Shown here piece after piece: positions 1,453-1,468 of a stretch of 15,612 nt of DNA; the first letter of the stretch is position 1, and every line of letters begins with the position of its first letter. This DNA is from a virus. Taxonomy: Duplodnaviria; Heunggongvirae; Uroviricota; Caudoviricetes. The DNA is taken from the IMG/VR virus record IMGVR_UViG_2778261247_000017; one strand, given 5' to 3'. The translations under genes were made by a program, and so were the position numbers. The notes beneath the pieces were generated by a model. The model worked only from the letters and a program-made list of their open reading frames with translations, made no database searches and was not told the DNA's origin.

Positions 1453-1468
1453 TGGTGCGATAATAGGA
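1453..1468. other. att-like core: reverse complement of a tRNA-Thr (thrW-type) 3' end, one base short
   Basis: tggtgcgataatagga matches TGGTGCCGATAATAGGA (reverse complement of TCCTATTATCGGCACCA, my recollection of the thrW 3' end) at 16 of 17 positions. It lies about 155 bp upstream of the truncated integrase start, where an att core is expected. Confidence 0.35.

Follow-up and report, generated by a model that had tools for sequence, protein, structure and literature searches.

The 16 nucleotides at positions 1453-1468 of the window (the whole 15,612-nt stretch of DNA that was analysed) resemble the 3' end of a tRNA-Thr gene, and they raise the question of whether such a fragment is a decayed trace of an old insertion or a site that still bounds an integrated element. 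The sequence reads tggtgcgataatagga on the plus strand and TCCTATTATCGCACCA on the minus strand, and a motif search finds a single exact copy of the latter in the window. The original prediction described it as one base short of the thrW 3' end. This is what the adjoining genomic thrW shows: the gene ends in TCCTATTATCGGCACCA (L001 27779-27795, L001 being the 39.6-kb DE17 locus), and the window copy agrees with these last 17 nt at 16 of 17 positions, a single indel leaving it one G short. An ungapped search of the window with the GG 17-mer TCCTATTATCGGCACCA gives no match because the difference is an indel. Arithmetic puts the number of exact 16-mers expected by chance in 2 x 15.6 kb at ~7e-6. 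The stretch shared with thrW starts with the final base of the T loop (a T at the T loop/stem border), and the sequence upstream of it is unrelated to the tRNA. Together with the T residues at 1452 and 1451, the core makes up an 18-nt block that is common to all attR copies of this PICI family. From the CCA end at 1453 to the start codon of the truncated integrase at 1298 we measure 154 nt, where a distance of about 155 bp had been given. ARAGORN finds no tRNA genes inside the window; Rfam yields no family match in 1200-1800, returning only a meaningless lncRNA (E=3.3); and promoter and terminator sites near the core are no commoner than in shuffled sequence, except for the terminator after the cargo operon.

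The window is 100% identical to a segment of the E. coli DE17 genome (NZ_CP045206.1, 3722307-3737918) and 99.7% identical to avian pathogenic strain IMT5155; among 5,426 complete E. coli genomes, no further one covers at least 80% of it. If the core is an attachment site, an intact tRNA-Thr with the same last 17 nt should lie past position 15612, and one is present there, beside the full integrase. This tRNA-Thr(CGU) gene (L001 27779-27854) begins ~167 bp past the window end and spans to 242 bp; it shares its strand with int, whose start codon lies ~166-167 nt downstream, and proA and proB lie beyond it. The integrase-side arm and the intact thrW occupy the 1-242 nt beyond the window end, following the integrase start. 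In DE17 the genes are ordered proA, thrW, int, AlpA, AntA, primase, PerC, cargo, core, int', MarR, vat (Table 1). The satellite integrase has Arm-DNA-bind_3, Phage_int_M and catalytic domains (Pfam), and the truncated Vat-island integrase, which has the same truncation in UTI89 and MP1, is 90% identical to its N-terminus. The PICI is flanked by a 522-nt direct repeat of 90.6% identity (window 960-1468 versus L001 27274-27795), of which one copy consists of the Vat-island integrase fragment and arm and the other of the PICI's own integrase start and arm. The same repeat is a substrate for RecA-dependent, integrase-independent loss of the PICI.

Table 1. Features of the thrW attachment locus; positions refer to the window unless another locus is named.
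Feature	Position	Strand	Remarks
MarR-family regulator, Vat island	31..525	+	vat autotransporter gene just left of window
Truncated Vat-island integrase	960..1298	-	112 aa, Arm DNA-binding domain only
Integrase-side arm of older Vat island	1299..1452	-	serves as chromosomal flank (B') of satellite attR
att core	1453..1468	-	thrW last 17 nt minus one G
Satellite-side arm (P arm) of attR	1469..1620	-	tandem putative arm-type sites
Cargo operon just inside attR	2153..3645	-	DUF4747 protein and hydrophobic partner
AlpA-family regulator/excisionase of satellite	13129..13326	-	Pfam Phage_AlpA, E=2.4e-19
Complete P4-type tyrosine integrase of satellite, 404 aa	14398..15612	-	start codon at the window end
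Single-G thrW genes	L032 3760-3833; L034 2064-2137; L103 759-832		ARAGORN: 74-nt tRNA, acceptor stem one base short

Genomes that lack one or the other neighbor of the core locate its limits. With a 321-nt query that spans the site we obtain matches in 678 E. coli genomes, among which we distinguish three configurations. In the first, which accounts for most matches, thrW is directly followed by the Vat island (UTI89, S88, LF82, Nissle, ATCC 25922 and several hundred others). These genomes match only window 1468-1300, a stretch of 169 nt that overlaps the annotated tRNA-Thr and continues beyond its CCA into the sequence downstream of thrW; it is 99.4% identical, and the sole difference is their extra G, which makes their stretch one base longer. 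In UTI89, for example, thrW is followed by the same truncated integrase, MarR and vat. In the second configuration the order is thrW, satellite, core, chromosome: N921 carries the same DUF4747 cargo and core, matches the query from the satellite side to 1451, and there the match ends, with yagP'-paoDCBA next and no Vat island. Past CACCATT, N921 continues into the chromosomal flank that K-12 has behind the thrW fragment at the CP4-6 end. In the third (DE17, IMT5155 and MP1), thrW, satellite, core and Vat island stand in tandem. In a four-way alignment homology ends at 1468/1469 towards the satellite and at 1450/1451 on the opposite side; these breaks in three configurations therefore delimit the element to the base, with a period of 14,327 bp. 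A satellite boundary near 1453 had been proposed, and that position falls between the end of homology to satellite-free genomes (1468) and the end of homology to Vat-free genomes (1451).

Some further observations concern the surroundings. On the 5' side of thrW, UTI89 carries an AAA ATPase, a recombinase family gene, an HTH gene and a hypothetical gene instead of proA (L002 1-3702), and there appears to be another insertion on that side. The Vat island adjoins thrW in avian pathogenic E. coli (Parreira and Gyles, 2003, as cited in PMC7545054). In DE17 the N-terminus of vat is truncated by the IS66-family element ISCro1 (L001 5198-11875, left of the window), and the toxin gene of the neighboring island is therefore a pseudogene in this strain.

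The 16 nucleotides at 1453-1468 are, in our judgment, very probably the attR core of a 14,327-bp PICI that is integrated in the 3' end of thrW, abuts the older Vat island and extends from the core rightwards to the intact tRNA-Thr 167 bp past the window. What we observe directly is the match to thrW, the tRNA itself and the three genome configurations, as well as a conserved arm motif and a single G that recurs. The locus has the properties of an attR: a distal direct repeat of the tRNA end, a tRNA with a complete integrase on the same strand, and genomes without the element between the repeats. Its closest counterpart is EcCIMP1, the PICI of E. coli MP1, which lies in tRNA-Thr between proA and yagU, beside a ~7-kb MarR/Vat island (PMC11773190, ISME J 2025). 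Excision and circularisation of EcCIMP1 occur only with helper phage Kapi1 and require the integrase and alpA; Kapi1 also induces, packages and transfers the element, whose boundaries (3,565,708-3,585,670) were obtained by Sanger sequencing of the circular junction and which has TCCTATTATC direct repeats on either side (PMC11773190). At its distal site MP1 has the same sequence as the window, TCCTATTATCGCACCATTCTAACGT, and the boundary given in the paper is at the last C of TCCTATTATC. By analogy with this close relative, in which alone they have been demonstrated, excision and its dependence on Int and AlpA may extend to the DE17 element; we infer the activity of the DE17 copy and the exact exchange point.

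We propose that thrW was already followed by the Vat-toxin island (truncated integrase, MarR) when the PICI arrived, and that the P4-type integrase of the PICI would have recombined its attP with the thrW 3' end. Integration would have left a complete tRNA gene (GG) and the PICI integrase-side arm at the near end, and at the far end the other PICI arm with two tandem arm-type sites, the 16-nt copy of the tRNA end and the old arm of the Vat island. In a helper-phage-induced cell, Int and AlpA would recombine attR with the thrW copy, leading to excision and circularisation. With the PICI inserted between thrW and the Vat island in DE17, IMT5155 and MP1, the island's tRNA junction is now the PICI attR. 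The core simultaneously joins the satellite to the older Vat island, the integrase-side arm of which starts at 1452. Several genes of the DE17 backbone are frameshifted or truncated (ProQ/FinO, Icd-like), so the DE17 element may be past completing a satellite cycle. At 10720-12258 (minus strand) the window also contains a 512-codon ORF that has no Pfam match and is absent from the RefSeq annotation. RefSeq places two small plus-strand genes of the YlcI/YnfO family and a truncated Icd-like gene in this interval, and the ORF is probably either spurious or the reflection of a rearranged region.

Gram-negative PICIs are characterized by an integrase, AlpA, a primase/replication module and largely co-oriented genes, and further by the lack of structural and lysis genes, a size of ~12-15 kb, an att site never occupied by prophages, and induction, packaging and transfer by a helper phage (PMC6092414). 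The DE17 element has the gene content of a PICI: it carries Int, AlpA and a D5_N/DUF5906/Pox_D5 primase, and nearly all of its genes lie on the minus strand. No phage structural or lysis genes are annotated in its 14,327 bp, where many ORFs are hypothetical and 15 were scanned against Pfam or PHROGs. Likewise, neither the RefSeq products nor the Pfam/PHROGs matches of these 15 scanned ORFs include P4-type psu, delta or sid. The gene thrW is also used by lambdoid phages and CP4-6, via a different core of 46-47 nt; the 17-19-nt core occurs with islands and satellites only, among the copies examined here. The element is a satellite, as had been proposed, of the EcCIMP1 kind of PICI rather than a classical P4.

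The arms on either side of the core bear on whether the site is functional. The motif TTGGGGGTAY, with one mismatch allowed, has 12 matches in L001 (39.6 kb) against 3.7 expected, a number reached in 0 of 100 shuffles, and eight of the 12 cluster at the two att regions. In the window a tandem pair (TTGGGGGTAC at 1542-1551 and TTGGGGGTAT at 1530-1539) lies 60-81 nt from the core. Inverted copies occur at 1299-1308 and 1352-1361 in the Vat-island arm, where the tandem pair has collapsed by a 12-nt deletion, and two tandem and two inverted copies lie between thrW and the integrase start. The arrangement GGGGGTAC-TTTT-GGGGGTAT keeps a constant distance from the core (60-81 nt) in 15 E. coli loci and one viral contig whose arms are otherwise divergent; elements with a 64%-identical integrase have TGTGTATAG-N3-TGTGTATAG at the corresponding position. 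This is the pattern expected for arm-type integrase sites, and its position and conservation suggest binding by Int. An inverted repeat around GCACCAT, considered by eye as a pair of core-type sites, matches at three of nine positions and is unconvincing. A search of viral contigs for a free attP junction gave five matches, all of them integrated copies. Near the core the Vat arm hardly differs from the PICI's own integrase-side arm, so that an attR beside the Vat island resembles an attP over short distances. The site appears to be a working-type attR. It had been called an att-like remnant, and of this description the att identity holds; the word remnant does not, since what we see is a regular distal attR with conserved putative arm-type sites and no decay.

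Just inside attR lies a slot whose content varies among strains. Related elements elsewhere match 3903-13133 only, leaving 1469-3902 strain-variable, and the GC content of this part is 0.32-0.41 versus 0.45-0.54 in most of the backbone, in keeping with the AT-rich cargo that was predicted to lie just inside the boundary. In DE17 the slot holds a DUF4747 (RexA-like) protein (2752-3645; Pfam E=9.5e-98) and a 199-aa protein that is hydrophobic by hydropathy analysis (2153-2752) and whose start overlaps the DUF4747 stop codon; a terminator-like hairpin follows the operon. The DUF4747 domain is common to the lambda RexA, Sbash and CarolAnn exclusion proteins, which are partnered by a membrane protein (PMC7542560), and a 'DUF4747/CarolAnn' operon has been counted among immune operons (PMC13373217). 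PADLOC (v2) returned no match for the cargo proteins and has no fitting model, and PHROGs placed them only in families of unknown function. The pair is a candidate two-gene abortive-infection or exclusion system of the RexAB/CarolAnn type. What occupies the slot elsewhere depends on the strain: GapS1, a SEFIR protein, a methyltransferase with DUF262, or a HEPN-like nuclease.

The missing G is a recurrent property of the distal core. We hand-picked 15 E. coli loci across identity classes, which is not an exhaustive census (~335 genomes carry this P arm). None of the 15 distal copies has GG: 10 have a single G and read TCCTATTATCGCACCATT, and five have larger deletions, four of the form TCCTATTATCCCATT and one TCCTATTATCTTCTAAC, all beginning directly after TCCTATTATC. 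The single G is also found in the MP1 distal copy and in three IMG/VR contigs (L018, L021, L022), and it precedes three different downstream flanks. By contrast, the proximal, tRNA-side copies have GG in five of five cases (DE17, MP1, L018, N921 and K99B). A species scan, which took one genome per species, required the single-G 17-mer and so yields no G:GG ratio, gave 92 matches where ~69 are expected by chance in 596 Gb; ~50 are in unrelated phyla. Enterobacterales contribute 41 matches, ~30 of which are preceded by a non-tRNA arm whose tandem motif belongs to the GGGGGTAY, the TGTGTATAG or the GGGGGCAY class. Recurrence in distal copies and in other species argues that the single G is an allele borne by attP and not the product of decay. 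As an attP allele it marks DNA of element origin, and it places strand exchange in, or at the edge of, (G)CACCAT(T). The exchange has its right limit where the two junctions diverge, which they do beyond CACCATT in N921, CACCAT in L018 and CACCATTC in MP1. As for the larger deletions, GCA is lost from the distal cores of K99B, SCU-104, RM9088 and NC101 (L004, L005, L006 and L016; ~position 494), which represent two P arms, and GCACCA from that of K56-43-un (L007, ~position 494). Deletions right after TCCTATTATC may be footprints of the cleavage site or inactivated att sites.

Other origins of the 16 nucleotides deserve consideration in light of these data. They could be a relic of the Vat island's own tRNA-integrase junction that lost one base by random decay, with the true satellite end elsewhere. 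Positions 1452 to 960 are indeed taken up by the integrase-side arm and truncated integrase of the Vat island, just as beside the intact thrW of UTI89. However, homology to satellite-free genomes ends precisely at 1468, the single G stands behind many unrelated P arms and before three kinds of downstream flank, and the experimental boundary of EcCIMP1 lies inside the core; N921, which has the same satellite end and single-G core without a Vat island, contradicts the idea. We consider such a relic very unlikely. We give equally little credence to a dead att site, in which the one-base deletion is decay after integration that locks the element in place. A single G in the tRNA would break acceptor-stem pairing and thus looks like damage, and the larger core deletions of some strains (TCCTATTATCCCATT; TCCTATTATCTTCTAAC) may be real inactivations. 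Yet EcCIMP1, with exactly this single-G site, excises, circularises and transfers, and independent decay cannot explain the same allele in three arm-motif classes across Enterobacterales.

Still less probable is that a lambdoid or P22-type prophage left the 16 nucleotides behind as a pseudo-tRNA fragment, comparable to CP4-6 in K-12 or the 46-bp core of SfI/SfV. Such phages are known to use thrW, and their repeats also end in TCCTATTATCGGCACCA (PMC3636060; K-12 locus), but those repeats start in the anticodon loop (46-47 nt) and keep GG in E. coli genomes, whereas here identity extends from the last T-loop base only and the sequence upstream is the PICI P arm. Chance resemblance between an AT-rich intergenic 16-mer and a tRNA end is the least credible of these readings, to the point of being negligible: the shortness of the match speaks for it and nothing more, against an expectation of ~7e-6, a further 154 nt homologous to the sequence downstream of thrW, and a real thrW at the other end of the element.

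The difference in the G between the two ends bears on where strands are exchanged. We first favored a strict model in which exchange takes place wholly 3' of the G, and have since downgraded it. The strict model predicts GG with the tRNA and G with the element, and occupied E. coli sites fit, but it does not explain why a single G also occurs on the tRNA side, both in other species and in 46-nt remnants. Full-length thrW genes with a single G are present in Citrobacter murliniae, Buttiauxella sp. and Lelliottia wanjuensis, in each case next to a decayed integrase-side arm with no integrase, and they look like one-base scars of island traffic. A single-G tRNA would lose an acceptor-stem pair, because, as read from the sequence, the 5' GCCGATA pairs with TATCGGC. 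Phage-type att remnants of 46 nt with a single G occur in L019/L020 (E. coli), L031, L038, L056 and L082; in L019 (12834-12878) and L020, both from IMG/VR, the remnant stands before the Vat island. Three complete E. coli genomes (L024-L026) whose upstream element and flanks are like those of L019/L020 have GG.

These tRNA-side copies would fit better with a G that lies inside the exchanged segment, followed by heteroduplex segregation and selection for a functional thrW. One could envision, as a tentative and on balance doubtful proposal, that G/GG is a built-in heterology between the attP core of thrW islands and the tRNA, located inside the exchange segment and shared by at least three arm-site specificities in Enterobacterales. 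Were this so, every integration or excision would produce a heteroduplex, which would resolve to an intact tRNA and a single-G attR, or to a one-base-short tRNA and a GG attR. The proposal would explain why occupied E. coli sites have GG at the tRNA and G at the far end, GG always being found at the tRNA because a functional thrW is selected. It would also account for one-base scars at seemingly emptied sites (the 46-nt single-G remnants of L019/L020) and for the full-length thrW of three species that lacks one acceptor-stem base. It would further mean that these integrases tolerate an indel in the overlap region and that satellite traffic occasionally inactivates a tRNA gene. To our knowledge, lambda-type integrases do not tolerate an indel in this region.

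The novelty of the site itself is low, because the thrW att core and its arrangement beside the Vat island have already been published for the sister element EcCIMP1; in this respect it is ordinary. A literature search for thrW with PICI or satellite found nothing useful by those terms. New here are the base-precise limits in DE17, the description of the core as 19 nt that differ by a fixed G/GG indel, the conserved arm motif, and the thrW scars in other species. The value of the finding is practical only. Through the core, a 14.3-kb PICI of the avian pathogenic E. coli strains DE17 and IMT5155 is limited on the right to the base (1459/1468). The core also sets this PICI apart from the Vat-toxin island, two elements that prophage finders tend to fuse, and marks a slot inside attR for strain-dependent candidate anti-phage genes. 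For this island family a 19-nt block carrying a fixed G/GG indel describes the att core better than does the 10-nt repeat of the EcCIMP1 paper, and the single G, as a marker of element-derived DNA, could help to reconstruct earlier integration and excision events at thrW.

The satellite P4 integrates at leuX, and its short core is the extreme 3' end of the tRNA, with int beside the tRNA and arm-type repeats. The DE17 element is similar in integrase architecture, in its tRNA-end core, in the position of int beside the tRNA and in its arm-type repeats (putative in DE17). It differs in using another tRNA and in its gene order, which fits a PICI; psu, sid and delta are not among its annotated genes. 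The lambdoid/P22-type phages SfI and SfV have att repeats at thrW that end in TCCTATTATCGGCACCA (PMC3636060). Like the DE17 element, SfI, SfV and CP4-6 (K-12) share the thrW target and the 3' terminus of the repeat and build tandem arrays at the locus. Unlike it, they have a 46-47-nt block that starts in the anticodon loop, belong with another integrase family, and keep GG in the E. coli genomes read.

The Vat island forms the left part of the window (MarR and the truncated integrase, with vat just outside) and directly follows thrW in most B2 strains. DE17, IMT5155 and MP1 differ from this usual arrangement in having a PICI between thrW and the island. Among known elements, EcCIMP1 is the nearest to that of DE17. 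The two agree in insertion site, distal core, downstream flank and tandem arm motif, and both have AntA, Icd-like, DUF4222 and PerC genes; identity is 95.8% for the integrase, 83% for AlpA, 59% for AntA and 46% for PerC. They differ in size (19,963 bp for EcCIMP1 versus 14,327 bp), in cargo and in the P arm outside the motif. Their primases are unrelated, with TOPRIM/DUF927 in EcCIMP1 versus D5_N/DUF5906/Pox_D5 in DE17 and no BLASTP match between them. Where the EcCIMP1 paper gives only the 10-nt perfect repeat TCCTATTATC, we recognize a block of 19 nt, made up of the 17-nt tRNA end and TT, that differs by a G/GG indel. The window carries the same att site as the experimentally mobile PICI EcCIMP1, here bounding a different member of the family.
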